A stretch of DNA of 63,795 bases, counting the filler, from Dirinaria sp. TL-2023a (Eukaryota): NCBI GenBank assembly GCA_051941275.1. It is 24 parts of 24 records of this genome, joined end to end, with 100 filler letters (N's around TTAATTAATTAA, not from the genome) between each part and the next. Parts side by side here need not be neighbours in the genome. Positions count along the whole stretch, not along the records: positions 40,169 to 42,718 come from JAVEBF010002261.1; 23 more parts are not named here. One strand, given 5' to 3'. Position 1 is the stretch's first letter, and each line of letters opens with the position of its first letter. The translations under genes and the position numbers were made by a program. This document shows positions 24,535 to 63,795 of the stretch, piece by piece. The notes under the pieces were generated by a model. The model was not told the DNA's origin. It saw only the letters and a program-made list of their open reading frames with translations, and did not search any database.

Positions 24535-25739
24535 AATTGGTAGCATCAACACGCTTACAACCAGTGCATTTGCGTACCAGTAGCACATTTAATTGCTACA
24601 CCATTTTGGTCATGTGTTCTGCATTCATCTCTTTTCATCGTTTAGTAGCACAGTCACCTCGGTGTTGCCTCTTCGTCGCCCCAGTGCCGCTGTTTCGTCA
24701 CTGCAGCTCCTTGCCACCGTCCCGTTTATCCCGCTTTGGTGGAGTATATTGCCAAACTGGATTTCAGCGAGGAGACCATCCAGTTGGCCCGCAAGATTAG
24801 TAACTTCCTACTCACTTTGGTTCGAACAATTTGGAAACTCCATTACTGAGTCCAGTTAAAGAATTCCTGGACAAGTCTATCAAATCGAGCCACGATATGA
24901 GGAATAACTTTTCCACTACTGTGCCATTGTTCCCAAGAAATTAACCATTTCGTCAATGTTCAAAATATAAAGCTGAGTAATTTCTTCAACAAGTTTCCAT
25001 CGATGAAGCCCCACTACATTAAAAGTATTAACATTGATTTAATCAAAAGCATGCAATATCGAATTCTGAGTCTTGCGTATTTTTTACTAATACTTTCATA
25101 ACCAAAGATATCAAGAACAATTTACATTAAACGAGTGTTCCAAAGGTCGCAGAGGTCGAGAACTAATGAATACTCAAGTATATAACCATCATCGATTTGA
25201 TCGAAGATATATATTCTTTCGAACTAAGCATTTATAGCTAGGAGACTGAACTGATTCTAACGGAGAGAGGGACGAAAATGGAAATTACTCTCGATTAAAT
25301 TGACAGTGTGATCCAAAAACGGAAACGCGGTGACGATATCAGCTCGCTGCTTCGCTCAACATTTGCCAAACTGCTAATCGAGCTGACACATACAGCATCA
25401 ACTCATGTAATGGGCCATAGCGTACTCGCTATATAAAATCCAATCAACTTTTCGTCATAGCAATGAAAAAAGACTCTCATCTGCGAGCAATCGTAACATC
25501 TGCTTTTATCATCAATTCTCAAGCACGCAAGTCTCAGACGCATTGCGTCTATCGCTAATACTTCTGTAATTTTCGAAAATAGTTAATGATCTGTGGCAGT
25601 TTGTATAGATCATTCTGCTTCTTCTCTCTCATATGGTTGTTCGATGCTCTCTATTCGTTCGTTACAATACTGCATGTTTTGATTTCTCCTAAAGAGTTTA
25701 TTGTCTTGATATTACTGTCGAAGAGTCTATAATAGTTAA

Positions 25740-31619: not shown

Positions 31620-31837
31620 TGTTACGAGCATGCACCTGGTATACTACCTGGGGCAACACCTCCCAGGGTTCTCAGGGGTAATGCGCTAACCCGATCGGGG
31701 TGTTTACCCCACACCCGCACACACGCATATATACCCGGGACCCCCTATTATATCTAGTTTTCGTTCTTCTTCCTTCCTTAGTGATAATATCTTAGTTAAC
31801 TATACCTGCATTGACTTGCTCTGCACCGGTCCTAACA
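31620..31837 (+). mobile_element. Short LTR (family C), TG...CA
   Basis: Starts TGTTACGAGC and ends CTGCACCGGTCCTAACA, the same termini as 60332-60580. It is a GC-rich island next to CC/GG-depleted DNA. Confidence 0.65.
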
Positions 31838-32109
31838 TCAGATTTGTTGATTTTAATCTTGTCATCGTCGTTATGTTCATTGTTGATTGAGTCGCGAGAG
31901 ATTGTTGAGTCGATGATGTTTGAAACAGAGTTACGTTGTTCTGAGACAAATATTTTTAAAGATGTTCAATGTTGTTGCGTTTTTTATTATCAATTTAGAG
32001 TTTCAGGTGTCTAATATAAGATGCTAGAGTTTGATCTGTTCGAAGAGATTCAAGTCTTAGAACAACGAGTGTCAACGTGATAAAGTTATTGTGATACTTA
32101 CTTTATCAC
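31838..32109. repeat. Hypermutated repeat, copy of ~59305-59415
   Basis: 31975-32085 aligns by eye to 59305-59415, mostly with C>T and G>A changes. Confidence 0.7.
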
Positions 32110-32829: not shown

Positions 32830-34908
32830 GTAGTGAGAGGAAGTGTTGGTGCATCCTCTTGTATCCGATAAGTAATTCAATTATTCTTCTTCAGCGCGGG
32901 CGGCGGACAACCTAACGTAGTCTGGGAGTTGCAGCCAGTCGTAGCAGGACTCTATTGGACATTGTAGAGGAGAAGGGTTGAGAACCGGGATAGCGCCCCT
33001 CATGCTCGGCATACTCGGAGGTCGCCTTGTAGCGATGACGGCAGCCTTGTCCAGCAGCCTTGTCCATGATTGTGAGCTACGAGTACCTTAGCTTTAATTG
33101 GAGTAGCGTTGCAGGCTTGCAGCGGGCAGAATGCAAAATGCAATTGGGATTGGTGGGGATTGAAGTCGTTGAGGCTGAGCAGTGCTTGTAAGATAACGAT
33201 CTCCAAAGCCGACAAAAAGTCTAAGGGTTAGGGTAGGGTTCGCCCGCCGACTTTGACCTGGGGGTATCTTCTACGAGTTCCAAAGGTGGTACACTTACCC
33301 CCTCGACATTAGCTACATATCTGATTACGAAATGCTCAAATAAGTAAGTGCTTGATGAATTGGAGGCCGAGCTTTGGGTTATATGGCTAGAGCAACGACT
33401 AGAATGGCTGTGCATGCTTAAGAATCGACAGACCTAAGAAGATGCAATGTGCAGCCGGATGCATTATTTGAGCACATAAAAGCTCCTGATTCGAATTGAT
33501 AGACGCTGGAAGTGTCGGACTACGATCACCTCTTTAAGCCTGACTCTCACTTGAATCTATGCTCATTATGCTGGAGCTGTTCCAATTCACGCGCGATCTA
33601 TGTGCGATTCGGAATTATTTTTTTCTATAGACTCATTCCTTCTCTTTTCTCTTATTTTTCCGATCAAGAAACACAGGTTCAATGTTGCAATTGACGAACC
33701 GATGAAACTGCTTCCTTGGCGTGGAGTAAAGACGAAACCAATGCAAGAATGGGCAAAATCTAAGCAATAGTCATGACTAGTCGAATGGATCACTCTAGCA
33801 TCAAGAAAGTAGAAATGGAACGAAATAACCATTGACGCGTCCAGTCTATCAGAAACAAGCTCGATGAATATCTTACTACGACAAATCGAGACGATTTTTA
33901 AGAGGAAAGCAAGATTGAGAATAAGTCCACAAGATTCGACTTATAGAAATATCAAGCGCTCGAACAATGCCGCGCTACGACAAACCTTTAACAAACTCGT
34001 CGTAAAAAATTTGAATCGAGAATGATGCGAAGCGTTCGCTCAGTATCGAATCGAAATACGTCCATGCGACAGCTCCTTATATTCGATAGAAAATATCGAG
34101 TCGCTAGTTAAGAAAAAGTTCGCACATTGAATCACTTCGTCCCTTTAGAAGACGACTTTTGGATTGCAGAATGCCTTCCAAATTCCCAACCCCCCCTCCT
34201 CTCTCACCAAGCAAATGCGAGCAAAGCGAGAACAAATTCTTCATTTCCCGCCCGTACTCGTACGTGAGAATCCAATGATTCCCTACCATACCACCAAAAT
34301 CAACCAACAAGAACGCCTTCTCGTCCTACAAACACTAGTCCAAAGACAAATATCTATCCACTTCACCTCTTCCTCCATCCTAGTCTCAATCCCCATTTTC
34401 CCTACTTCAGCACTAGGGCTTTCACCCCATCCATGCCGTCCCGAATAGTACCTTTTTCTCATACACCAATCTATGAGAATTAGATTAGGGACCAAGCATC
34501 TTCCCTCAGCGAAGGAGCATTTCAAGAGAAAAAAATTCATTAATCCATGCAACGGCCTAAGTAAAAGGACGGCTTTAGGAATCATATCATAGACCAAGAG
34601 ATACAGAGCTGAAAGATTGGAAAGATTAATATATGGAAGTACATATGGGTAAGAAAGGAAGGAGTCGAGGGCGATGGAGGATATGAGATGCGATTTGTCC
34701 GCGTTATTATTGTTTTTTGGTCGGGGTTGGAGGAGAGGGCGGTCTGGGTTTTTTGGGGGGGTTTNNNNNNNNNNNNNNNNNNNNNNNNNNNNNNNNNNNN
34801 NNNNNNNNTTAATTAATTAANNNNNNNNNNNNNNNNNNNNNNNNNNNNNNNNNNNNNNNNNNNNGTTTGGTGCCAGGGGGAATGGCTAATGAGAATTTTG
34901 CTATCTAG

Positions 34909-37517: not shown

Positions 37518-37625
37518 TTCTGTACTTATACTTCTTCTTCTTCTGATTCTTCCTTTTCTTCCTTATAGATAGTGTCCTAGTCTACTAGCACCCATATGCC
37601 ATTGAGCGCTGTGCAGGCCCTGACA
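37518..37625 (+). mobile_element. 3' part of LTR family B (contig edge)
   Basis: Ends GCTGTGCAGGCCCTGACA and is similar to 61606-61831 and to the reverse complement of 38994-39241. Confidence 0.7.
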
Positions 37626-38857
37626 TAGAAATGTCATCTCGTTTTATGAAAAGAAACAATACCGTGATTATAAAATAAAGACTCAGTTATCGAAAGCGTG
37701 AAACGTAATGTAAAGTCATGTTATTCGTTTTAAATGCTCAAACGATACTCTTTCGAATATGATTCATCATTTCATATTTTATTTAGAGATATTCAAAGAA
37801 TTTGCTGATCTTCGATGCTTCAAAATTAAGACACAGTCTCAGTACAGTCTTCAAATATGAAGCTCTTGTGCTTATCAAGAGAAATACATTGATCGAATTC
37901 GCGTATGACTCTGTTGAAGAGATGATGACTCTCATCGTTTTCAGTGACACGTCTCGCTTTTAACATTATGATCAAATCAGTATTCTGCGTATTCTGTAGC
38001 ATAAATATTGTATTTTCTGCAAATCGTATTTGATAGCATCGGGTGTTACTCTTTTGTACTTTTTTGAGCATAAGATAAAATTCTCATTTGCATTGAGGTT
38101 GAAAGAGATAAAATTTACAATAGACTAGCTCTATGACAAGATTGTATTATTGTAAATAAAAAAGCTTTTACGTTCAAATCAATGTAAGATTTATTAAGTC
38201 AGATCGATCTGAGTGTCTTCAGCACGTCGAGTCTTTCGTCTCACAGAAGGGAAGTATACATCTAAAGCACTTATCTTCATCAGTCAGTCATATTGCTACG
38301 AACGTCAAGATTTTGCAATTAGCCTCAATCGTAAGATTATGCATTTTTCAACTGCAAATCGATCACAACACATGCATTAGAGTAAAGCTTTCTCATGCTC
38401 AAATATGGTTTCGAAAAAGATTTCGAGACTATCTGAAATATTCGCGAGAAAAACATTAAATTTTCAAATCGACGTTGTGTCGTTTCGGAAGAGTAGTGTA
38501 ACGCTCGCAGAGAGAAGAATAATTTTAGCGACTCTCTTTAAAACACTATGTTCTCGACATTCTCATCATCAAAATTAATGTCTCAATATCTGAATAAAGC
38601 AGACTCTATCTCTGCTCGTGTTCGAAATCTTTCTTTTAACGCATTCTTCAGTTTCGCATAAAACTCTGTAACTGTTTCGTAAAATTTCAAATCGACTGCT
38701 TGAGTTTCTTTGTGATAAGTTAGCTTTTGCAGCAGATAGTCGTTCGTTCGTGTGAGCTCTTCAATACGTTTCTTTGAAGAACGAGAATGATGACGTTTTA
38801 ATATTTGAAGTTGATGAGATAGTTGCTCGTAGATAGATGTCGTTTTATCGTTTCTCG
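37626..38857 (-). pseudogene. Hypermutated multi-copy gene relic of unknown family
   Basis: CC/GG-depleted DNA with a residual coiled-coil frame EQLSHQLQILKRHH...RIEELTRTNDYLLQKL (38583-38857). Confidence 0.45.
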
Positions 38858-38989
38858 TGTCAAAGACCCAACCTTGGTTAGATAGGTTTCCCAATGGTAA
38901 AAGTCCCGGCACGGCCAAAAGACTAACTAAACCAAGTCAAAGGACTTGGTGCCTATCTTACTACTTGGTTAGTTTCCAGGGTCGTAACA
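38858..38989 (-). mobile_element. LTR family A copy (~130 bp)
   Basis: Reverse complement of the 39611 and 39939 repeats, with termini TGTTACGACC...TTTGACA. Confidence 0.85.
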
Positions 38990-38993
38990 CTAA

Positions 38994-39241
38994 TGTCAAG
39001 GCCTGCACAGCGAACATAGCATGTGGGTAATACTAGACTAGGATACTAACTATAAGGAAGAAAAGAAGAAGGAAAAGAAGAAGGAAAAGTATAAGTACAG
39101 GAGGTGCAAGCAACAAATAGGGGATCGGGTGTGCGGGTAACGGGTCTACGGATAACGCCTATAAGAATATAGTGCAAAACTCCTTAATATTAGAAGTCTC
39201 CAGGGTCCACACATAGGTGCTTCCAGGGCAGGTTCATGACA
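38994..39241 (-). mobile_element. LTR family B copy (~248 bp)
   Basis: TGTCATGAACCTG...GCAGGCCTTGACA on the minus strand, homologous to 61606-61831. Confidence 0.75.
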
Positions 39242-39608
39242 ATGCCGTCACGATTTCAACGATCAAAGGATTGAATAGAGAAGGAATTTCAGAAGCAAAT
39301 TGAGCCAAAGTCTTGAAAGCAATGTCGTATCGATCTAGTTTGAATTTTGTGTAAATTCATCGAGGTAGTATTTGAGCTGTAGTGGAAAATACAGCTTTCA
39401 AAAATTCGACATAATATCGCTTGACATTCTGGGCCCACTGTATGTGACGAATCAGGATCTTGGGGTCTGAATCGAAAGCCAGACTCTTAATTGAGAATAC
39501 ATATTCGTATCATTTCAGGAACTTCTGAAGCGTTGAACTATCAGCATGCATCGTAGTCGTGGAGAATTGCATCACACGTAACTGCACCACTGAGATGAAC
39601 TGCTCGAA
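39242..39608 (-). pseudogene. Mutated gene fragment, possibly from an OTT_1508-like deaminase-domain protein
   Basis: ~122-codon frame broken only by two TGA (plausibly TGG): ...LPR*IYTKFKLDRYDIAFKTLAQFASEIPSLFNPLIVE. The family is recalled from memory, not verified. Confidence 0.4.
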
Positions 39609-39610
39609 GA

Positions 39611-40068
39611 TGTTACGACCCTGGAACACCTAAGTAGTAAGATAGGCACCAAGTCCCTTGACTTGGTTTAGTTAGTCTTTTGGCGCTGCCGGGACTTTTA
39701 TCATTGGGAAATCTATCTAACCAAGGTTGGGTCTTTGATTTTAAACCAAGTCAACCCGGTCGCAAAGTTCTGAGTTCGATTTCGCTCGGACGCTTGAAGG
39801 GTTGTTTCGGCGAGGACTTGTGGCTGAGAGCTTATCTAAGCTCGGGGCGACTACTTAACCTTTCCACTTAAGGCGAATCTCCTACCCACACCCTGAGTGC
39901 TGAGCTTCGGGACGAAGCTCAGAAAGGGACCCGGGTAGTGTTACGACCCTGGAACACCTAAGTAGTAAGATAGGCACCAAGTCTCTTGACTTGGTTTAGT
40001 TAGTCTTTTGGCGCTGCCGGGACTTTTACCATTGGGAAACCTATCTAACCAAGGTTGGGTCTTTGACG
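39611..40068 (+). mobile_element. TRIM-like miniature LTR retroelement: LTR-A (39611-39740), ~200-bp internal region, LTR-A (39939-40068)
   Basis: Two 130-bp direct repeats with a non-coding interior. A hairpin and purine tract (TGAGCTTCGGGACGAAGCTCA GAAAGGGACCCGGGTAG) abut the 3' LTR. Confidence 0.8.
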
Positions 40069-40168
40069 NNNNNNNNNNNNNNNNNNNNNNNNNNNNNNNN
40101 NNNNNNNNNNNNTTAATTAATTAANNNNNNNNNNNNNNNNNNNNNNNNNNNNNNNNNNNNNNNNNNNN

Positions 40169-42718
40169 CAACGTTGCGTCGTTTGCTCAACGACAAACTC
40201 GTCACGAAATTCATGATGAGCTTTTTTCATGATTTCGTGACGACAAACAAAAACTTAAACTCATCATATGATTTATATCGTGACGCTTTGATGCGTTGAC
40301 AAATATTACATGATTTAACATAATCTTTCATCTGTTTTTCGCAGACGAGTCAGTAATATTTTCTCTGAATTAACTTTAGTGTTTTTTTCGCATCAAAATG
40401 ATCGATCAAAAGATCATCATGATTTTTGGAAATAAATTTCTCTTTTACAGTCTCATTCTCGAGAACATAAAGTCGACTCTCATGTTTAACTAAGTTTTTT
40501 TGATTCAAAGCTTATGTTTTGAAACGCGTACTTCGACGAGACGACGACGCAACAGAATTATCATGTCGATGATCAATCGATTGCTCGATGATGCAAAACT
40601 TTTTTGCTCATTTATTCTGTGTCTGAAGCTTCTTAATCAAGAATTTTATAACTCTCGTCGACTTTTCGTAAACGTTCTCAGATATGTCTCTGACGATTTT
40701 TCGCGAGATGACGATCTGTACATCAGCTAAATTAAAAACAGAACTCATCGTCGTGAATAATCTCTGTTTGTTCTGCGACAGCTTATTATTAAGTCAGTCG
40801 ACAGCGTTAACATCAACACCAATTATTGAAAATACGTCGATCTGTGTCGAGTTTCGTCGTTTCGACGTCGACTTTTGTCTCGTCAGTAATAACTTGTTCT
40901 GCAACGTCGACAGCAACGTGATGTTATTAATCGAGATCTTTTCATAATCGAATCGTCTCGAAAATTCATCTGCAGAATTGTTTTTCTCTGCACGATGATG
41001 AATTTCAAAATCATAAATTGTCAATTTCAACGCTTAGCGCGTTTGTCTGACGTTAAACTCGCTCTGTTTCATAAATTCTCTAAAATTATTGTGATCTGAT
41101 CATATCTCAACAGTATGCGCATTACTTTTTAAATAATGTCGTCATTGTTTAAATGCTGTTATTATGATTAACAATTCCTGATCATGTGTTTTATAATTTT
41201 GTTTCGTCGAGATCATTTTTCTCGATCAGAATGTCATCGAACGTCAATGATCATCTTCATCAGACTGACTCAAAATTTCGATCACAGCGAAATTTGATGC
41301 GTCGATTTTTATTCGAATTTTCTTTATGGAGTCAAAATGATAAAGCATCGACGCAGAGTCGAAAATCTCGCGAAGTCGTCGAAACGTCTGTTTTGCTTCA
41401 TTAGTTCATATCAATAACTCTGATTTATTATCTTCTTTACTGTCTTTTAATAAATCAGTTAAAGATTCTGCTATATTAGAATAGCGATAAATGAAGCGTC
41501 TGTAAGAATTAGCAAAATTTGAAAAAACTTGCACTTTTTTATAGATTTTCGATTTAAATCATTTCTCTATGATTTTAACTTTTTCTCGATTCATTCGTAC
41601 TCTTTCTGTGAATACAATGAATTTAATAAATTCAATTTCGCAGATGTTGAATTGACATTTTTTTTAAATTGATATACAATTGAAAAATGCGTAAACGCTG
41701 CAACATCTGTCGAATGTGACGTCAATGTTTCGTCGAATTCTCGCTGTAAATAAAAATATTATTTAGATATATTACGCAAATAACATTTACTAATTCTCGA
41801 AAAATCTTATTTATATAAACTTGAAAGATCGTTGAGATATTAATTAATTCGAATGATATTATCTGATATTCGAAATGTTCATAACGAGTGCGAAACGCTG
41901 TTTTTCACTCATCACTCTGTCTGATGCGTATTCGATGATAAGTATTCTTAAGATCTAATTTAATAAATATCTTGATTTCATTTAAACGATTTAACGTTTT
42001 CGTTATAAAAGACAAAGAATGTCGATTTTTGATTGTGACAGCATTCAAATTTCTATAGTTTACACATAAACGTAGTTCTTCATTCTTTTTAAATACAAAA
42101 AGAATAAAGATCTCTGCTGATGAAACGAAATAAGGAATTCAACTCTTTTTAAGAGCGTCATCTAAATATCGTCGAAGTTTCGTCAGTTTCGTCTGAAAAA
42201 GATTATATAATAACATAAAAAAAGATTCTTGACTCTTAATTAAATCAATGACATGATTTTCTCGATTTTGTTCGAGTAAAATTTCGATCTTTTTGTTATT
42301 AAATTGATTTCGCAATTCTAGTAATTTTTTGAGAATTGAAGATTCTGATTTCAATTCATCTGTCGTCGTCACAACGTCGACGCAGATTAGAACGTACACT
42401 CGTTGCTCGTCAGCGACATTTTCGACGAATTTGATCGATCCAGAAATTTTAAATTTTTTCGAAGCAATTTTGAATCGTTAATTGACTAATTTCAAATTTA
42501 TCAATATACTTTGATTCGCTAACATAAGCATATCTAAAATGAGATCTGAGTCAACAAAATCAACTGCGTAAAAAAGAATAATACATTCGCGATCTTGTTC
42601 TCAAAAATCAATTAGTCAATAAATGAGTTTATAAACGTCGTAATAGTAACGATCTTTCTCGGTTAAGAATCTCGACAGCGACAGAGCGACGATTATTTGC
42701 GATAGATCTCACTGAACA
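40169..42718 (-). mobile_element. Ty3/gypsy pol (protease-RT-RNase H-integrase Zn finger), heavily mutated
   Basis: Relic motifs ILFVFKKNEELRLCVNYR, DE*KTAFRTRYEHFEYQIISFEL, YLNNIFIYS and EIHHRAEKNNSADEFSR, with many stops. Confidence 0.92.
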
Positions 42719-42818
42719 NNNNNNNNNNNNNNNNNNNNNNNNNNNNNNNNNNNNNNNNNNNNTTAATTAATTAANNNNNNNNNNNNNNNNNNNNNNNNNN
42801 NNNNNNNNNNNNNNNNNN

Positions 42819-43724
42819 CCCCAGCAATCCCACGAGCTGCGCTCTCAACCCGTCCAACCCACCCTCCAAACCTCCAACCCACCTCACGCCGTCCCCATCA
42901 AACACCCTGCCCTCCACTCTCGCGCCCAACAGTATCAGTTTCTGTAGCCCGCCCTGCACATCCGTCTCATAGTACGATGGATTCGTACGGCGTTTCGGGG
43001 CCGGGAAGCTACTGGGCGAGGGGACGAGGATGCTCAATGCGGCCGCCAGATGTGCAGGGGAAACGGTGGGGAAGGAAAGTATTGCGAGCGGGCCGGAGAG
43101 GAGCGGCGAAAGCGGGTGCACGGATTTATACCTGCGGGTGGCGGCGTGCGCGTGCGTTGAGAGCCCGTGCGTGTATGTTTCGTCGTCTGGTGTGTGGGGG
43201 GATTGATTCGGGAGCTCGGCGGAGGATTGCGTGGATGGGTCTGTGGCGTGTGGGATTGAGGGGGTGGGAGATGCCGTTGGGTCGAAGTATGAGGCGACCA
43301 GGAGGGCGGAGCGGAAAATTGAGGATTGGATGATTTGCAGCTTTATGGCGTCTGCTTGAGGAATGGAGGATGTCGACGCTTCTTGTTGTTGCTCGTCGAT
43401 CTTGCGCAGAGCGGATGAGAGCTCGCGCCGGATGGACATCCATTCTATGGCTCGCAGGTTCGAGTGCTGGAATAGCAGTATCAGGGGCGTCGAGCGGAGC
43501 AGGGACGTGTATTGCCGGTGGAGCTGCGATTTGCGGTATTCAGGTGGTTTGTGAGAGGGCGGCTGCGTGAGTGGGAAGCGGGCTATGGGTGGTGGAGAGA
43601 TTGTTGTCTGGTCGAGAGACGCTGCTGGCGTGATTGCTGCGGCGGATGCGTATTGACGAGATATGCGTGGAGCGAGTGGGAGAGGGCGGAGGCATTGTGG
43701 ACAGAGGCGCTTTCGTGGAGGCAT
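42819..43724 (-). CDS. MRPL11: Mitochondrial large ribosomal subunit protein uL10m (3' truncated)
   Basis: Basic presequence, then PPSHKPPEYRKSQLHRQYTSLLRSTPLILLFQH, LLSGPLA and KLILLGARVEG...LDGLRAQLV. Confidence 0.75.
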
Positions 43725-44011
43725 ATTGGAGACTACCGTACTCGTAAATTGTATTTGTAGAAGACCTTTTGCTGTTGGAAGCCGATACTACAATGTAACC
43801 TGCAGACCTTCGTTGCTAGTGCTGATTACGTAATATAAATTTCTCATGCCACAGACCCGTACTTCGACCTCAGACCATACAAAGAATTGAGCTACACCAT
43901 GACCCTTTACCGTTTCAAACCTAGCTTTACGGGGCGGTAGCAAGCCATGACTATGGAAAGACCCATCAATCACATACTCACCGTCAGATTCCTGCCTCCT
44001 CAGCAGGCGCA

Positions 44012-45322
44012 ATGGCTTCGCTACCTCCCTCCGACTCACCACCCCACCCCACAATATCAATAACACCCCTCCTCACCTCCCTCCTTTCAAACCACCCCGT
44101 CTCACCCTCCGAAATCTCCGCCACTCTATCCCTAAGCTTTCAGAACGCGCTCTCACCGACCCAATGTGCGTCGCTCCTGACCCTACTCGCCTCCTCGAAA
44201 CTCGACCGCGACCCTCTCGTGCTGGCACAATGTGCATCCAGCATGCGCGAAGCGGCAACGCCCCTCAACGCCTCGGAGCTGCGCGCAGTGATCCGCGAAA
44301 GGGATCTGAAAGAGGGCACCTACAGAGGTGGCTTAGTGGACATAGTAGGCACAGGCGGCGACGGGCACTCGGTCTTCAACGTCTCGACCTCGGCCTCGAT
44401 CCTCTGCTCCTCCCTGCTCCTCGTCGCGAAACACGGCAACCGGGCTTCCTCCTCTACCTCCGGCTCCGCGGACCTGATCCAATCGCTCCCCTTCTCCCCC
44501 GCTCCAGACATCGAAGCGACGACGGCGGCGCGCCTGCCGAAAGTCTACACAAGATCCAACTACGCCTTCCTCTTCGCGCCCCGCTACCACACGGGCATGC
44601 GGCACGTAGCGTCGATCCGCAAAGACCTCGGCTTCCGCACAATCTTCAACCTGCTAGGCCCCCTCGCAAATCCGGCGCACGCGCACATCGAAGCCCGGAT
44701 CGTGGGTGTCGCGAGCCAGGACCTGCTCCCCGTCTTCGCGGAGGCCTTGCGCCAGAGCAAAGCCGACAAATGCCTCGTGGTCTGCGGCGCCGAGAACCTG
44801 GATGAAATCAGTTGCGCGGGGGTGACACACTGCAAATACGTAGTCAAACGCCCGAACCCACACTTCCGCGGCGCCGGAAAAGAGAAGGAAGACGACAATT
44901 CCACCACGAGCGACGACGAAGAAACAGAACCGCGTCTGCGCACGCAGATCGAAAGTTTCGAGCTCTCCCCCACCGATTTCGGCCTCGGCATCCACCCCCT
45001 CACAAGCGTCTCCCCGGGTAAACAGCCGCGCGAAAACGCAGAGCTGTTGATGAAACTACTGCGCAATGAACTCGCGCCGGATGACCCGGTCCTGGAATTC
45101 GTGCTCCTGAACGCGGCGGCGCTGTTCGCCGTCAGCGGCGTTTGCGAAGCGGAGGGATTCCCCCAGCAATATGGTGATGGTGAGGCAGCAGCAGCGGTGA
45201 TCAAGGAACGGGGTCCGGGCGGGCTGAGATGGAAAGAAGGCGTCCGACGCGCGAGGTGGAGTATCGCGAGCGGCGCGGCGCTGAGGGCTTTGGAGGCTTT
45301 TGTGAGCTGCACGAGGATATAG
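44012..45322 (+). CDS. TRP4: Anthranilate phosphoribosyltransferase
   Basis: DIVGTGGDG..FNVST, KHGNRASSSTSGSAD, RKDLGFRTIFNLLGPLANP and LDEIS motifs. Intronless, 436 aa. Confidence 0.95.
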   Translation: MASLPPSDSPPHPTISITPLLTSLLSNHPVSPSEISATLSLSFQNALSPTQCASLLTLLASSKLDRDPLVLAQCASSMREAATPLNASELRAVIRERDLKEGTYRGGLVDIVGTGGDGHSVFNVSTSASILCSSLLLVAKHGNRASSSTSGSADLIQSLPFSPAPDIEATTAARLPKVYTRSNYAFLFAPRYHTGMRHVASIRKDLGFRTIFNLLGPLANPAHAHIEARIVGVASQDLLPVFAEALRQSKADKCLVVCGAENLDEISCAGVTHCKYVVKRPNPHFRGAGKEKEDDNSTTSDDEETEPRLRTQIESFELSPTDFGLGIHPLTSVSPGKQPRENAELLMKLLRNELAPDDPVLEFVLLNAAALFAVSGVCEAEGFPQQYGDGEAAAAVIKERGPGGLRWKEGVRRARWSIASGAALRALEAFVSCTRI

Positions 45323-47250: not shown

Positions 47251-48576
47251 GGCATTCATTTCTTAACTCAAAAAGTCAGATAAATGGGAGGTTCTATAAT
47301 CGAGCATGTTCTGCAACTATGGCGCAACTCTTTTTCCAAAAAAAAAAAAAAAAAAGCTAATACCGATCACCAATCAACCCCCTCCCCTCCCCTAATCAAA
47401 AAATTCCTCAATCTTCAATTCACTCCTCTCCCTAAATACCAACTCCCCATTCCCAACATCCCCAACATCCTTCCCCAAACCACACATCAAAGAAAACCCC
47501 TCGCACTTCCCATTTCCTCGGCAAAATTCAAATCATCTCATTTTTAACACGCGGTTTGGAGCACTACAGTAGAAATAATTATGGAGAAAGAGAGGAAAGT
47601 GAACGGAATAATTAACAGATATCACAAGACAGCAGTGTCGAGAAAGCAGCTTTTTAGATAATTACAGTAGTAGTACTAACGCAAAGTTCTACCTACTCCC
47701 CACCAAAACCCACCACCTTCCAAGACCTTACCACATCTTTCCCAATAAACCAAATTTCTTACCTCTCCCCAAAATGACAAAGCTAAATAAATTCCAATTT
47801 CTCATCAATTCAAAATCTCAATTATTATATCCTGGATACGGCAACTAAAATAGGGCATGCAATAACTGTATATATTATTCCAACCAAAAAATAAACATGC
47901 TAATAGCAATTAGCTACATGTAACCAATTTCTATATACCCAATCGATCCAATCCAAAAAAAAAAAAAAAAACATGCCTGTACTAACAATCCCAACCCTCC
48001 TTATTCTAATACNNNNNNNNNNNNNNNNNNNNNNNNNNNNNNNNNNNNNNNNNNNNTTAATTAATTAANNNNNNNNNNNNNNNNNNNNNNNNNNNNNNNN
48101 NNNNNNNNNNNNTATCAGCAAGTAATATTAATGTGTGTGAGGGACACAAAAAAGAAAAGGTGGATTGGATGATTTTGATGGTTGGTTGGCTTTCCCCCGG
48201 GGCTTTGTTTGTGTGTATGTAGATAATGTATGTATGTAGATAGCTATGGAAACATGTTGATTCTCCGCTGAGATTACATCGTTTTTTTCTTCTTCTCTAC
48301 GCGGTTGTGGGACAGACAGATAATTTCCTGGATTTTGCCTCGATCTAATCACGCACGCGCTCGTACTCCCCTTAGCATGTACAAAGTAGACATAAAGGAG
48401 CCTACAAGCGGCTTTCAGCTAGATGTGGTACGAAATATGTAGAATAATGGGTGCTAAATTTTCTGGTTCCCTTCAGGACACCACCCCAGACGAGACATAT
48501 CTACATAATCCTTCCCTTTCCCACTGAATCCGGATCAAGGCATACATAATCCTTCCTTTCACACGGGTGATCCAAA

Positions 48577-58656: not shown

Positions 58657-59249
58657 ATATTCGAGCTGTTGTTTGACTCAGCGTCGTTTGATAAAGTCGC
58701 GGCGACGAGAAACGAGCGATCGCTCGAAACGATTTCAAAATCGTCTTTCGATTGTTGAGACTCTGACATTTCACGCGAAAACGTCATCACTATTACACTT
58801 CGAGTCTTTTTCTTCAAAAGATTGAAGTGATTAGAACTGTAAGATCGTATGCGTCGATTACTCGTCGACGCAGTACTTGTGTGAAAGACGTGATAGTGTA
58901 ATAAATTATATGACTATCTGATACTGCAGTTTCTGCTAGAATTAATCACTAAGAACTCTTTTCGAAAGAGTGAGTGATTCTCTATACTTAATCGCGAGCG
59001 TTAACATTATCTCATCATGACGAGTCTCGCGCTGACGAGTCACGAGCGCTCGTAGACACAATGCTCTATAAGCGTCAATCGTTCACTGACTTCTAGTTAG
59101 TCTCGGGATTCAACCTTCCGACGCTGACTTCTAGACGGCGCTAGCCATGCTTCAGACCCCGAAGGATTGCCCCTGGGCACCCCCGGCTGCCAAGCGGCGC
59201 TAGCCTGCATTGGTCAATATATACCAATGTATCAGGTATCACTGTTACA
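58657..59249 (-). mobile_element. LTR family D (~58880-59249) plus start of the mutated internal region
   Basis: Minus strand begins TGTAACAGTGATACCTGATAC. The outer part is GC-rich and the inner part is CC/GG-depleted. Confidence 0.6.
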
Positions 59250-59539
59250 CTAGACTAGCTAGCTTTTCTGATATATAGACGGTCCTTCTGGATCTGGGCA
59301 ACTGTTGCGTCTTCTACTATCAACCTAGGTTTCCAGGTATCTAATAAGAGATGCTAGGGTTTGATCTGTTGGAGAGGTCCAGTCCAGGAGCAACGGGTGT
59401 CAACGTGATAGGGCAAGTATCACACAAGATAGGTACTTAGTACTTGTAACAGTAGTAGACAAGTTAACTGAGATTGAACACGATGTCAGAAGAGCGTCGT
59501 GTTAGAGATCTATATAGTAGTCCTCCTGCGCTAAATGCT

Positions 59540-59627
59540 CAAGATGTTCAAGTATCAGGTCCTCTTGAACTACTTGGACTGATCAAGATGTTTAAGCATC
59601 AGGTCCCCTTGAACTACTTAAACTGAT
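59540..59627. repeat. Tandem repeat, 2 x 44 bp, inside a probable further LTR starting TGTAACA at ~59445
   Basis: CAAGATGTTCAAGTATCAGGTCCTCTTGAACTACTTGGACTGAT / CAAGATGTTTAAGCATCAGGTCCCCTTGAACTACTTAAACTGAT. Confidence 0.8.
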
Positions 59628-60331
59628 CACGTGATCATCAAGTCCAAGCGCCAAGAAGATGCGCCTCCTTGATCATGGTGCGTCCCTGTTCCTCAGGCTA
59701 TCGCATAAAGATAGGTCATAGCATAGGGTCGCAGCAGCAACTCAGACTTTTACACACTCATTTGCTCACTTTTTTGGACGTTGCTCATTGACACGCAACA
59801 TTATCAGTGACTCAGTTCTGAAAATAATTGACAAATTTTTGAGATTGTGCTCTCTGCGTATTTTTAGTAATTTGATTTCTCGATATGAGTGATCGCAACG
59901 TCGTTGACACGATATTGTAAATGAAGACTCGAGCGTTTTCGATAAAAATGATTGTGTCGATGACGTTTATAAAATCGTTGATTTGATGAGTCTTTTGAAT
60001 TATCTCTCTTGATAAATTCGACGATGACGTCAGCTTGAACAGCTCTCGAGACAGTGTAAAGTAAGTGAGTGAGTGATTAAAAAACGAAGATTTGTCGATC
60101 GAACAAAACGAATTGAGAATTGAGAGAGATAATCGAGCTGAATCGTTTGCACGATTTGAAAAAATAGAACGTTTACACGATCTATCAAGTTAATAACAAA
60201 AACAGAGCTGAGAATGATGATTGATATGCGAGTCGATGAATATCATCGTCTTGTTAATACTATTATCTATTGAGAAAATCATGATGTGAAAGAAAGATAA
60301 TTTTCATTTGATGAGACAATTGTTCTCTAAG

Positions 60332-60580
60332 TGTTACGAGCCTGGCTCTCACTGTTGTTACCCGGGTCATTTTCTACAAGGTTTTTATGTGTGGTGTTGA
60401 GTTTTGACCTGATCGGGGTTAGCGCATCCGGAGTGGTGGTCGGTCCGGCCGATCAGGGTCCAACGCCCACACATCCATATTATGCCTGGTTCCAGTTCAT
60501 AGATTTCTTTTCTTCTTCATGCTTTGTGTATTTAGTTGATAGCATCTGCATAGATCATACATTCTGCACCGGTCCTGACA
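60332..60580 (+). mobile_element. Short LTR (family C) within mutated TE DNA
   Basis: TGTTACGAGC...CTGCACCGGTCCTGACA, a GC-rich island flanked by CC/GG-free sequence. Confidence 0.7.
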
Positions 60581-61176
60581 GCAAGTGTGCAAAAAGAAGA
60601 ATCGATCGATATTCAATTAGTTAATGCGATCGCATTCAATATGCTCTCACAAAGAGAACGCCGCAATAAGAAAGATCTCAAACTATTCTTTCTTACTATG
60701 TCACAGTTAGATCGAGAACTTCGTCGTCGCTTCAACATCGCGAAGAAAGATAATGTCGAGTCGTCAATATCATCAATGACGATGAAGAATATCATTAAAC
60801 TGATTCTCTCGAAGTATAAAGATTTAGCTGAAGCATTCGATTCTAAAAAAGTAAAGAAGCTATCTTCTCATAAACTCTATGATCACAAAATCGAGCTCAT
60901 CGATGATTTCAATCAACTATCTAAGAGTCGAGTCTATTCTATTTCGAACTACAAGCTTCAGAAGTTAAAGAAGTATCTGAATGAAAATCTCAAAAAGAGC
61001 TTCATCAGTTCGAGTTATGCTTCTTATGCTTTCTCGATATTGTTTGTCGTCAAGTCTAATGAAGAACTACGAGTTTGCGTTGACTATCGCAGACTGAATG
61101 CAATTATCAGAAGAAATCGATATTCTATATCTCTTATTAAGAAGACTCTTGTCAAAGTCATAGAATGTAAGTATAT
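60581..61176 (+). mobile_element. Ty3/gypsy reverse transcriptase N-terminal region, hypermutated
   Basis: HKLYDHKIEL...LKKYLNENLKKSFISSS...AFSILFVVKSNEELRVCVDYRRLNAIIRRNRYSISLI. Confidence 0.9.
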
Positions 61177-61605: not shown

Positions 61606-61988
61606 TGTCATGAACCTGAACTGAAAGCACCTTTGTGAAGGACCCTGAGGACCCTGGTTTTTTGGCACTATCCCCGTTTAGGCGTGTTTACTCGCAGTGC
61701 CGCCGGACCCCCTATTTGTTTGCACCTCCTGTACTTGGATTTCTTCTTCTTTTCCTTCTTTTTCTTCCTTAGATTTAGTCTCCTAGTCTACTATTACCCA
61801 CATGCCTATGTTTGCTGTGCAGGCCATGACATTAATATCACGATCCTGGAACACTAAGTAGTAGAATAGGCAACCAAGTCGCTGACTTGGTCTAGTTGGT
61901 CTTTTGGTAACTACCTTACTTTGGTTGGGTCTTTTCCTGGGACGCTAACTATGGGAAACCTATTCAACTGTAGTTTGGGGTCTTGACA
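61606..61988 (+). mobile_element. Composite solo LTR (family B 61606-61831 + TTAA + family A-like 61836-61988) with ATTAG target-site duplication
   Basis: ATTAG at 61601-61605 and 61989-61993, TG...CA termini, and halves homologous to 38994-39241 and 38858-38989. Confidence 0.75.
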
Positions 61989-62621
61989 ATTAGTTTGAAG
62001 CCTGCGATGACTCAACGCGTTGGGTGTGATATCGATGAAGCTTTGATGATGGTTTGATTCTGTAAGAGGGTTTGTAGACTTAAATAACATACTTAGCTTT
62101 AGGCCATGCATCTGGCAAAGTCACGCTCTTTGAGTTCAACTTTCTTGAAATGAACAAATAACAATCTTATTACTTTGCAGCAGAGATGTCAGAGGTGGGT
62201 AGAATTTATGAAGATTGTAACTTCCCGTTAACTGTGCTAAACATTTTCGAGGCATTACGAAGCCTTAGAGAAAACTCTTAGATATTACGGGACTCTTCTT
62301 GACTTGATCTAGAACATTGCATCATTCTGAGTTTCAAAACAGGTTTTGCTTTGAATTTAAGTACTATCTCCGATCTGAATTTCGATCGTTTGAAGAGATT
62401 CAGCATATGTTTTAATATTAGGTCGATACGTCGAAGATACACTTGATATTATCACATGAATGATCTGACAGCATGTGAATCTATGTGTCATATTCGACTT
62501 GTTATTGTGAGCTGTCTAATATATCAATCAGTATTAAAGATACGATCAAGATCAGTTCTCTAACTGCTACATAATAACAGGTCGCGAAGCTCACGCGATT
62601 CCAACTCAGGAGACGGGAATA

Positions 62622-63795
62622 TCATAGTATCCGCGCCGTCGGCGCCTTTTGTACTGATATATCTGTCTCTAGCTTCCGGCTACGTTTTTCTTTGCCCGCG
62701 CTGGCTTTCTCTTTTACAGCACGCTTTGCCTGTGCCTCCTCAATATCCTCATAGCTCATCACCTTCGCCCTCCCGACGACTACTGACTTGAATGACCTGC
62801 GAACTTTGACTTCGTTATTCGTTTTAAACAGGAATCGAGTTTGATCTCGAAGTAGAGCACGTTCAGCAAAGAATATGTGAGCGGCGTTGACAAGCTTCTG
62901 TATATGCCTCTGTATGCGCTGTTTGCTCGTCTCATCAAGCGCATGAGTACATTGTGTGATCAGACTGTGGAGCGACGTAAGAGCATCTGATGTCGCTGAA
63001 GTCGCTGACGTCATTGAGATCTGAAATACTCCGTCTTGTGAAAATGAACCCACCTTCAATTCATAGGTTTTGAGACTGATCAGTGAGATCGATTTCGAGA
63101 TGTTGCTGAGCACTCTATTTGAGTTGAACGAAAACAACCCGCTTGCAGCCCACGATATCTACACCTCCTCGATACAGTTGTTCAATCTTGTCGCGATAGG
63201 CTGCCTTGAGTGAGCCGAACACTTCAATGTTATAGAGCTGAAGCTTATGAAAGGCGTGAGAGGATAGACTACATAGGATGATGTTGTTTTCGAAAAAGTA
63301 TTCTAAGATTTCGAGGGTCTCGTGTGTCTCGAAATCGTCGCAGATTAGTACACGTGGATTTCGATTAGTCAGTGCTTTGGTTTGAGAATCAAATACTCGT
63401 TTAATTTATTTTAAGCTGATCTTAAGAGTCCTTGTATCCAGTTTCGAAGTGCGCGTAGTGCCATTCAAGAGTGGTATACGTGATTCAGTTGGCTCGATGG
63501 GTTCTGACTGACCAGATTATCATAGATGACAAATACCTACTGTCTGCAGATACACACTCGATCGCAGTGACCATTGTTCGCTTGACACCCGCGCTTCTAT
63601 AGTCTCGCGAGTCGTTCTTATCTGTAAGTACCTTAACAGAGCCGAGCATGCTTAACATGACTTCCGTCTCGTTCATGTTGTAGACATTCTCCGGCAGAAT
63701 GCCTCGGTCTTGTAATATTTTTCTCATCACCTCGAGCCAGTGCGTAATCCTGTCGTAGATATTGTTTCGTGCCGACCCTAGTCTATCCCCTTTAC
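62622..63795 (-). mobile_element. Tc1/mariner pogo-Fot1 DDE transposase pseudogene
   Basis: ENVYNMNET, VTAIECVSAD, RVLICDDFETH, LSSHAFHKLQ.....F..LK.AY and the C-terminal AKVMSYEDIEEAQAKR, with stops and frameshifts. Confidence 0.9.

Follow-up and report, generated by a model that had tools for sequence, protein, structure and literature searches.

Near-complete loss of CC and GG dinucleotides from a Ty3/gypsy relic of Dirinaria sp. TL-2023a: a likely RIP-type hypermutation directed at CpC

Repeat-induced point mutation (RIP) represents the textbook genome defence of fungi, and its CpA signature is used for its detection in genomes. This report deals with a relic of a Ty3/gypsy pol gene that has lost nearly all of its CC and GG dinucleotides; it occupies positions 40169–42718 (minus strand) of a stretch of 63,795 nucleotides of DNA from Dirinaria sp. 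TL-2023a (GCA_051941275.1), which consists of 24 parts joined end to end with filler and is referred to as the window throughout. The relic was characterised by its composition, by its reading frames and stops, with phmmer and by a codon-level test. The likely cause is considered to be a RIP-type C-to-T hypermutation that is limited to repeats and prefers CpC, followed by CpT.

By the limits cited in PMC3897900, canonical RIP is called when TpA/ApT reaches 0.89 or more and (CpA+TpG)/(ApC+GpT) does not exceed 1.03. The accessible text of Amselem et al. 2015 (PMC4352252) describes RIP-like signatures at CpA, CpT and CpG, and CpC occurs nowhere in it; the accessible part of a survey from 2025 that covered 1,239 fungi (PMC12543289) reports a common CpA preference of RIP-like defences. 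For Cladonia, Xanthoria and other lichenised fungi, RIP has been deduced from GC content or standard indices, and contexts are not given in the accessible portions of those reports. Full-text searches of the literature outside subscription-only papers returned no CpC-dominant RIP-like signature.

Composition and direction of change in the main relic

The relic (2,550 bases, GC content 0.32) contains three CC and four GG dinucleotides (observed/expected ratios, O/E, 0.04 and 0.07). The original prediction had counted about seven by eye; the exact count of 7 is to be compared with about 130 expected (129.6 ± 9.7 in mononucleotide shuffles, the lowest of 2,000 containing 101). In a separate shuffle run z was −12.1, and 0 of 1,000 shuffles were as low as observed. 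The O/E values of the further dinucleotides were 1.57 (TC), 1.53 (GA), 0.88 (CT), 0.74 (AG), 2.28 (CG), 0.59 (TA), 1.04 (CA) and 1.02 (TG), CA/TG and CG having remained abundant as predicted. The coordinates of the relic are the borders of runs of N, and its real edges are hidden within N on both sides.

Two coding pieces were recognised on the minus strand: a reverse transcriptase (RT) frame at 41578–42477 and a frame for RNaseH and the integrase N-terminus at 40170–41663. The latter matched 378 proteins at E ≤ 1e-30 in phmmer, the best full-length matches being gypsy pol proteins of 33–41% identity. The RT motif had been predicted to read SDE*KTAFRTRYEHFEYQIISFEL, and this reading was found in a minus-strand frame. 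The two pieces together carry 17 in-frame stops, distributed as 14 TGA, 3 TAA and 0 TAG.

For the codon test, both frames were aligned to 40 intact gypsy pol proteins, and columns with at least 60% agreement (n=278) were scored. Changes were found in 111 columns, 92 of which are accounted for by C>T/G>A alone. Conserved Pro was retained in none of 25 columns (Ser 15, Phe 5, Leu 4, Val 1), conserved Gly in none of 15 (replaced by Glu, Asp, Asn, Lys, Ser or Arg) and conserved Trp in none of 7, all of which had become stops (6 TGA, 1 TAA). Retention was 5/5 for Gln, 4/4 for Cys, 8/8 for Asn, 20/21 for Arg and 8/11 for His. When the inferred single changes (n=105) were sorted by context, 64 fell in CC/GG, 33 in CT/AG, 7 in CA/TG and 1 in CG. 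In conserved codons for Asp, Glu, Val and Ala, the G at the first position was mutated in 15 of 16 cases after G, in 14 of 21 after A, in 1 of 7 after C and in 3 of 14 after T.

The mutated base is identified as the 5′ C of CpC, as had been predicted, because TC and GA are raised while CT and AG are not, because Pro was converted mostly into Ser, Trp mostly into TGA and Gly into Glu, Asp, Asn, Lys, Ser or Arg, and because first-position G was mutated mainly when preceded by G. The change is strand-symmetric, since CC and GG remain in about equal numbers (3 and 4). On either strand, the 5′ C of CpC is thus changed almost to saturation, whereas CpT is changed partly and CpA and CpG are spared. 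The partial, secondary CpT target had not been named in the original prediction. In silico models were constructed by removing every CpC, or every CpC and CpT, from the genes of the window: CpC removal gave a GC content of 0.41 with O/E values of 1.87 (CG), 1.80 (TC) and 1.78 (GA), additional CpT removal lowered the GC content to 0.29, and the relic (GC 0.32, CT 0.88, AG 0.74) falls between the two. The codons in which Pro had become Leu read CTC or CTT and those in which it had become Phe read TTT, which fits a conversion of C runs in either order together with some CpT activity. No clear extended-context preference was detected at the bases before and after the surviving CC of partly mutated relics.

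The canonical CpA>TpA signature was absent from the relic: TpA/ApT was 0.59 and (CpA+TpG)/(ApC+GpT) 1.16, in comparison with 0.56 and 1.23 in genes, and O/E was 1.03 for CA/TG and 0.59 for TA. Indices of the TpA/ApT type therefore overlook the loss, as had been expected. It is captured by (CpC+GpG)/(TpC+GpA), a little-used RIPCAL index (definitions in the accessible part of PMC2621366), with values of 0.016 in the relic versus 1.03 in genes.

Further relics and unmutated neighbours in the window

The loss of CC/GG was mapped along the window in steps of 500 and 100 bases and was seen only at 37518–38858, 40169–42718, 58657–59000, 59700–61176 and, in weaker form, 62000–63795. The signature is confined to these five transposon relics and is absent from genes and AT-rich spacers. 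The relic at 37518–38858 is unclassified and retains 18 CC+GG (shuffle mean 78.8, z = −8.2); O/E values of 1.62 for TC and 1.32 for GA were obtained for 37626–38857. An LTR-retrotransposon fragment (LTR, long terminal repeat) at 58657–59000 retains a single CC+GG (shuffle mean 26.8), and 58790–58917 aligns at 74–77% with the 5′ part of the metagenome gypsy loci L001, L005 and L021 described below. A second gypsy relic (59700–61176, plus strand), which extends from the protease to the start of RT, is partly mutated (37 CC+GG versus 100.5, z = −7.5), and RYSISLI was read in its translation. These three relics, with CC+GG counts far below the shuffle means, cover 37626–38857, 58657–59000 and 59760–61176, the three further places at which the same pattern had been predicted. 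Six-frame Pfam searches at E ≤ 0.01 assigned no family to 37626–38857, 58657–59555 or 59699–61176.

The weaker case is a pogo/Fot1 transposase relic (62640–63766, minus strand), recognised by Pfam (DDE_1, E = 3.8e-07) and by tblastn in three frames. It is partly mutated, with 64 CC+GG against a shuffle mean of 113.6 (z = −5.8), a weaker loss than in the gypsy relic and in line with the original prediction. When 302 columns conserved among 45 intact homologues of about 65% identity were compared, Pro was retained in 2 of 18 (Ser in 11), Gly in 9 of 19 and Trp in 3 of 5, and His (7/7), Tyr (7/7) and Gln (10/11) were largely kept; 32 of 48 inferred changes lay in the CC/GG context. Reverse transcription is not required for the process, because a DNA-transposon relic bears the same signature in part. 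As a separate observation, Pro was lost in 16 of 18 columns but Gly and Trp together in only 12 of 24, a strand bias within one copy; in Neurospora, single RIP events are known to favour one strand.

These results bear on the idea that retrotransposon cDNA was edited in an APOBEC-like manner while it was being reverse-transcribed. The strongest cases are indeed LTR retrotransposons, which would speak for such editing, but CC and GG were lost equally (3 and 4), a DNA-transposon relic bears the signature, both strands of non-coding LTRs show the effect, and it is the 5′ C that is changed (Pro became Ser and not mainly Leu, and stops are TGA and not TAG). This explanation is accordingly regarded as very improbable. 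AID/APOBEC-type editing was rejected as a candidate, being contradicted by strand symmetry, by the decisive role of the 3′ neighbour and by the effect on a DNA transposon.

The composition of the surrounding DNA served as control. Within the main relic 0–1 CC/GG per 100 bases were counted, versus 12–24 just beyond the flanking N runs on either side; from 42800 on, the count of CC+GG was 16–24 per 100 bases. The ordinary genes that adjoin the relic in the window (42771–45322) are a minus-strand open reading frame (ORF, 42771–43787) and then a plus-strand anthranilate phosphoribosyltransferase gene (TRP4; Pfam Glycos_transf_3), both of normal composition. The CC/GG O/E averaged 0.94 ± 0.16 in 109 background windows of 500 bases (minimum 0.59), the loss being restricted to the relics and absent from genes, as predicted. 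In the AT-rich non-repeat windows beginning at 47501, 48001, 57001, 57501 and 58001, the ratio was 1.13–1.30; low GC alone therefore cannot cause the loss, and an equally strong loss in non-repeat DNA, which would have spoken against the prediction, was not seen.

Native element composition, sunlight (dipyrimidine) damage and assembly artefact draw on nothing beyond the low GC content of the relics. Against them, frames are destroyed at conserved Trp, Pro and Gly codons, and ultraviolet (UV) damage would deplete TC, whereas TC is enriched in the relic. Normal genes lie within about 100 bases in the window, and the same signature was found in independent assemblies. These candidates, contradicted by the in-frame stops, the codon test and the normal adjoining genes, were rejected as scarcely credible.

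A short element with inverted terminal repeats of about 134 bases (38859–40067; repeat 38859–38992 / 40067–39936, 93% identity) provides an internal negative control, as this element of about 1.2 kb is placed between two mutated relics and is unmutated (CC+GG 137 versus 121 expected, z = +1.9). An extra copy of the inverted repeat lies at 39611–39738, and related pieces (76–84%) lie at 61606–61907 and 37520–37626. The normal composition of a repeated element fits either insertion after the mutation or a sequence too short or too diverged for targeting.

TRP4 is 58–63% identical to proteins of many lichen-forming Lecanoromycetes (e.g., Heterodermia, Xylographa, Lambiella and Varicellaria) and 84–85% identical to two further sequences, and the protein resource places it in Ascomycota. 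Judged by this one gene, the source can be described no more closely than as an ascomycete whose nearest named relatives are lichen-forming. Short repeats within the window gave mismatches by context of CT 27, CC 25, CA 19 and CG 3, too few to judge.

Several minor features of the window were recorded. Moderate CC/GG loss (O/E 0.15–0.58) was seen in small patches at 25301–25700, 31801–32100 and 33801–34100, which may be small relic fragments; 31973–32082 aligns with 59303–59410 at 80%. Pairs of runs of 44 N with 12 bases between them recur about every 2,650 bases from 2614 to 61276 of the window (e.g., at 40069–40168 and 42719–42818).

Related gypsy elements in metagenomes

Five short metagenome ORFs (P0028, P0039, P0120, P0137 and P0148) were found to be 54–65% identical to the relic, with 0% Pro and 0–0.6% Gly and with Trp exactly at the positions of the relic's TGA codons. 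This pattern makes it probable that their gene calling translated TGA as Trp. When metagenomes were scanned with an alignment of relic-like sequences, 80 gypsy loci were obtained, 45 of which (a figure that is not a prevalence) had a CC/GG O/E below 0.25, across 16 contig-name prefixes. They comprise 24 loci with CA/TG of at least 1 (class A) and 21 with additional loss of CpA (class B). A further 21 loci are of the canonical RIP type (CA/TG 0.02–0.6, TA above 1, CC/GG 0.9–2.0), 11 are unmutated and 3 intermediate. In two loci (L004 and L014), zero CC/GG were found across 17 consecutive 500-base bins (8.5 kb) at a GC content of about 0.32. Certain class A loci (L009–L011, L013, L059 and L076) also show CpG loss (O/E 0.46–0.61) and a CA/TG excess of 1.41–1.55. 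Flanks of normal composition were present in just 2 of the 45 CpC-type loci. Beside one fully mutated gypsy element, an ORF of normal composition was observed (L066, 201–422, minus strand) that is similar to the DNA-binding N-terminus of pogo-type transposases and is no housekeeping gene; it may be a younger insertion.

The locus types were compared by tblastn with an intact pol protein (P0005) as query. In CpC-type loci the TGA share of stops was 22/27, 26/33, 25/27, 15/15 and 18/20, and one of these loci (L004) retained Pro in 0 of 51 and Gly in 0 of 50 positions, no Gln having been converted into a stop. Of the stops in two canonical-type loci (L055 and L064), 52/52 and 47/48 were TAA/TAG; L055 retained Gln in 0 of 30, His in 0 of 31 and Pro in 18 of 50 positions. 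The unmutated locus L041 retained Pro in 39 of 54.

C>T changes among the copies of these relatives were tabulated by 3′ neighbour with deRIP-type counts, as the original prediction had proposed. CpC proved to be the most-affected context in the four CpC-type families (mutated share 0.63–0.74; CpA 0.07–0.55), and CpA had the highest share (0.69) in one canonical family. Several copies of a related family are present within one contig-name prefix.

A cleaner test made use of LTR pairs, the two LTRs of an element being identical at insertion; a terminal pair was obtained in 14 of 25 loci. These 14 elements (3,942 columns) gave 429 transitions and 14 transversions (0.36%), with 0–11 CC/GG in the LTRs. 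In eight CpC-only elements, the share of ancestral C mutated in one LTR was 0.89 for CpC (17 changed, 2 kept), 0.33 for CpG, 0.19 for CpT and 0.09 for CpA; in six elements of the second class it was 0.76 for CpC, 0.50 for CpA, 0.40 for CpT and 0.23 for CpG. Because transversions amount to 0.36% and yet almost no CC is left, the CpC rate must have been orders of magnitude above background. This argues for an enzymatic burst rather than slow decay, on LTR pairs of relatives and not of the window's own genome.

Spontaneous deamination is not known to give rates orders of magnitude above background. An explanation without a dedicated mutator, in which heterochromatin-directed, CpC-biased cytosine methylation was followed by slow spontaneous deamination of 5-methylcytosine, would agree with a loss that is limited to transposons and affects both strands, and with the CpG loss and CA/TG gain of the class A relatives. 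It is difficult to reconcile with the LTR pairs, in which almost no CC/GG remains at 14 transversions in 3,942 columns. The window relic, moreover, does not combine CpG loss with TpG/CpA gain (CpG O/E 2.28, CA/TG 1.03), and residues without CC/GG in their codons were largely kept. Slow decay of this kind is considered unlikely.

Five CpA-type loci with CA/TG 0.02–0.07 and CC/GG 1.7–2.0 (L034, L040, L055, L057 and L064) share the contig-name prefixes JAABUK, JAABUS and JAABUW with CpC-type loci (L016, L023, L026, L027 and L076). Either several fungi are present in one metagenome or two mutational histories are present in one genome.

Proposed mechanism and comparison with known systems

The changes are C:G to T:A transitions on both strands for which the 3′ neighbour is decisive; retrotransposons and a DNA transposon are both affected, and the effect ends sharply at the edges of the relics. 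In the likely course of events, double-stranded transposon DNA would be hypermutated enzymatically from C to T as a genome defence, with CpC→TpC (GpG→GpA on the other strand) as preferred context and CpT as weaker second target. Targeting would proceed by recognition of repeated DNA before meiosis, and the enzyme may be a RID/Masc1-type (or DIM-2-type) methyltransferase-like protein with an altered preference for the flanking base.

The AID/APOBEC and DddA-type deaminases that are known respond to the base 5′ of the target. One could nevertheless envisage a deaminase that is targeted to repeats and not related to RID/DIM-2, such as a double-strand DNA cytidine deaminase: CpC is the context least used by canonical RIP in RIPCAL analyses, the erasure is near-total (0 CC/GG in 8.5 kb), and relics of the CpC type share contig-name prefixes with canonical CpA-type ones. 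That co-occurrence may, however, reflect several fungi in one metagenome, the enzyme is purely hypothetical, and it is the base 3′ of the target that decides, just as in RIP. An unrelated deaminase is considered quite unlikely.

A number of points weigh against a RIP-type process with a CpC preference. Its dependence on homology rests on analogy with RIP, and no second copy of any mutated relic was found within the window. The homologues used to reconstruct the ancestral codons of the gypsy relic share only about 35% identity with it, and 19 of the 111 changed columns are unexplained by C>T/G>A. The same is true of 38 of 85 changed columns in the Fot1 relic, for which homologues are about 65% identical; ordinary divergence is therefore also present in that relic. 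The secondary target varies (window, CpT; class A, CpG; class B, CpA), and more than one process may be acting. The deRIP-type counts show sizeable other contexts (CpG 0.25–0.49 in families F1, F2 and F4) and are crude, as flanks were included, every C/T column was taken as C>T and sites at saturation escape notice. The patterns for the metagenome scan were derived from mutated sequences, so the proportion of 45 in 80 is biased, and the loci are unassigned to taxa.

A wider proposal is that a whole lichen-type ascomycete lineage possesses a defence by which repeats lose practically all of their CpC, by means of either a RID-family enzyme with re-specified flank recognition or an unrelated double-strand DNA deaminase. 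It is put forward as an unlikely one. If it were true, a natural CC-context DNA editor would exist, and index-based surveys would have scored such fungi as RIP-free or RIP-poor. Kilobases are left without any CC/GG and yet score zero by standard RIP indices, so surveys of RIP in fungi, notably in lichen-forming ones, may undercount. The relics also offer a natural comparison for tracing the flanking-base preference to a part of RID/DIM-2 or to some other enzyme. As Trp is converted into TGA, gene callers that allow TGA as Trp can report dead elements as open reading frames.

Among the systems known, APOBEC3G shares with the present case the CC dinucleotide as target and the inactivation of retroelements by C>T (G>A) changes. 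That enzyme, however, acts on a single cDNA strand and at the 3′ C of CC, whereas the present changes concern the 5′ C, occur on both strands and extend to a DNA transposon. The CpT-biased signatures of Magnaporthe and Botrytis and the CpG-biased ones of Aspergillus, Tuber and Microbotryum provide a precedent for a flanking base that varies between lineages, and the partial CpT component of the window relic resembles the former; CpC is not the leading context in any of these fungi, and the window relic keeps its CpG in full (O/E 2.28).

RIP of Neurospora crassa and other Pezizomycotina, which depends on RID and DIM-2, likewise produces C:G to T:A changes only, on both strands and in retrotransposons as well as DNA transposons. 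The 3′ base is decisive in both cases, the effect is sharp-edged and confined to transposons, which in the present case are probably repeated, and mutation is heavy enough to wreck every reading frame. The window relics differ from RIP in the preference for CpC and then CpT instead of CpA, with no gain of TpA and no loss of CpA/TpG, in stops that are TGA where RIP gives TAA/TAG, and in classic indices that are negative.

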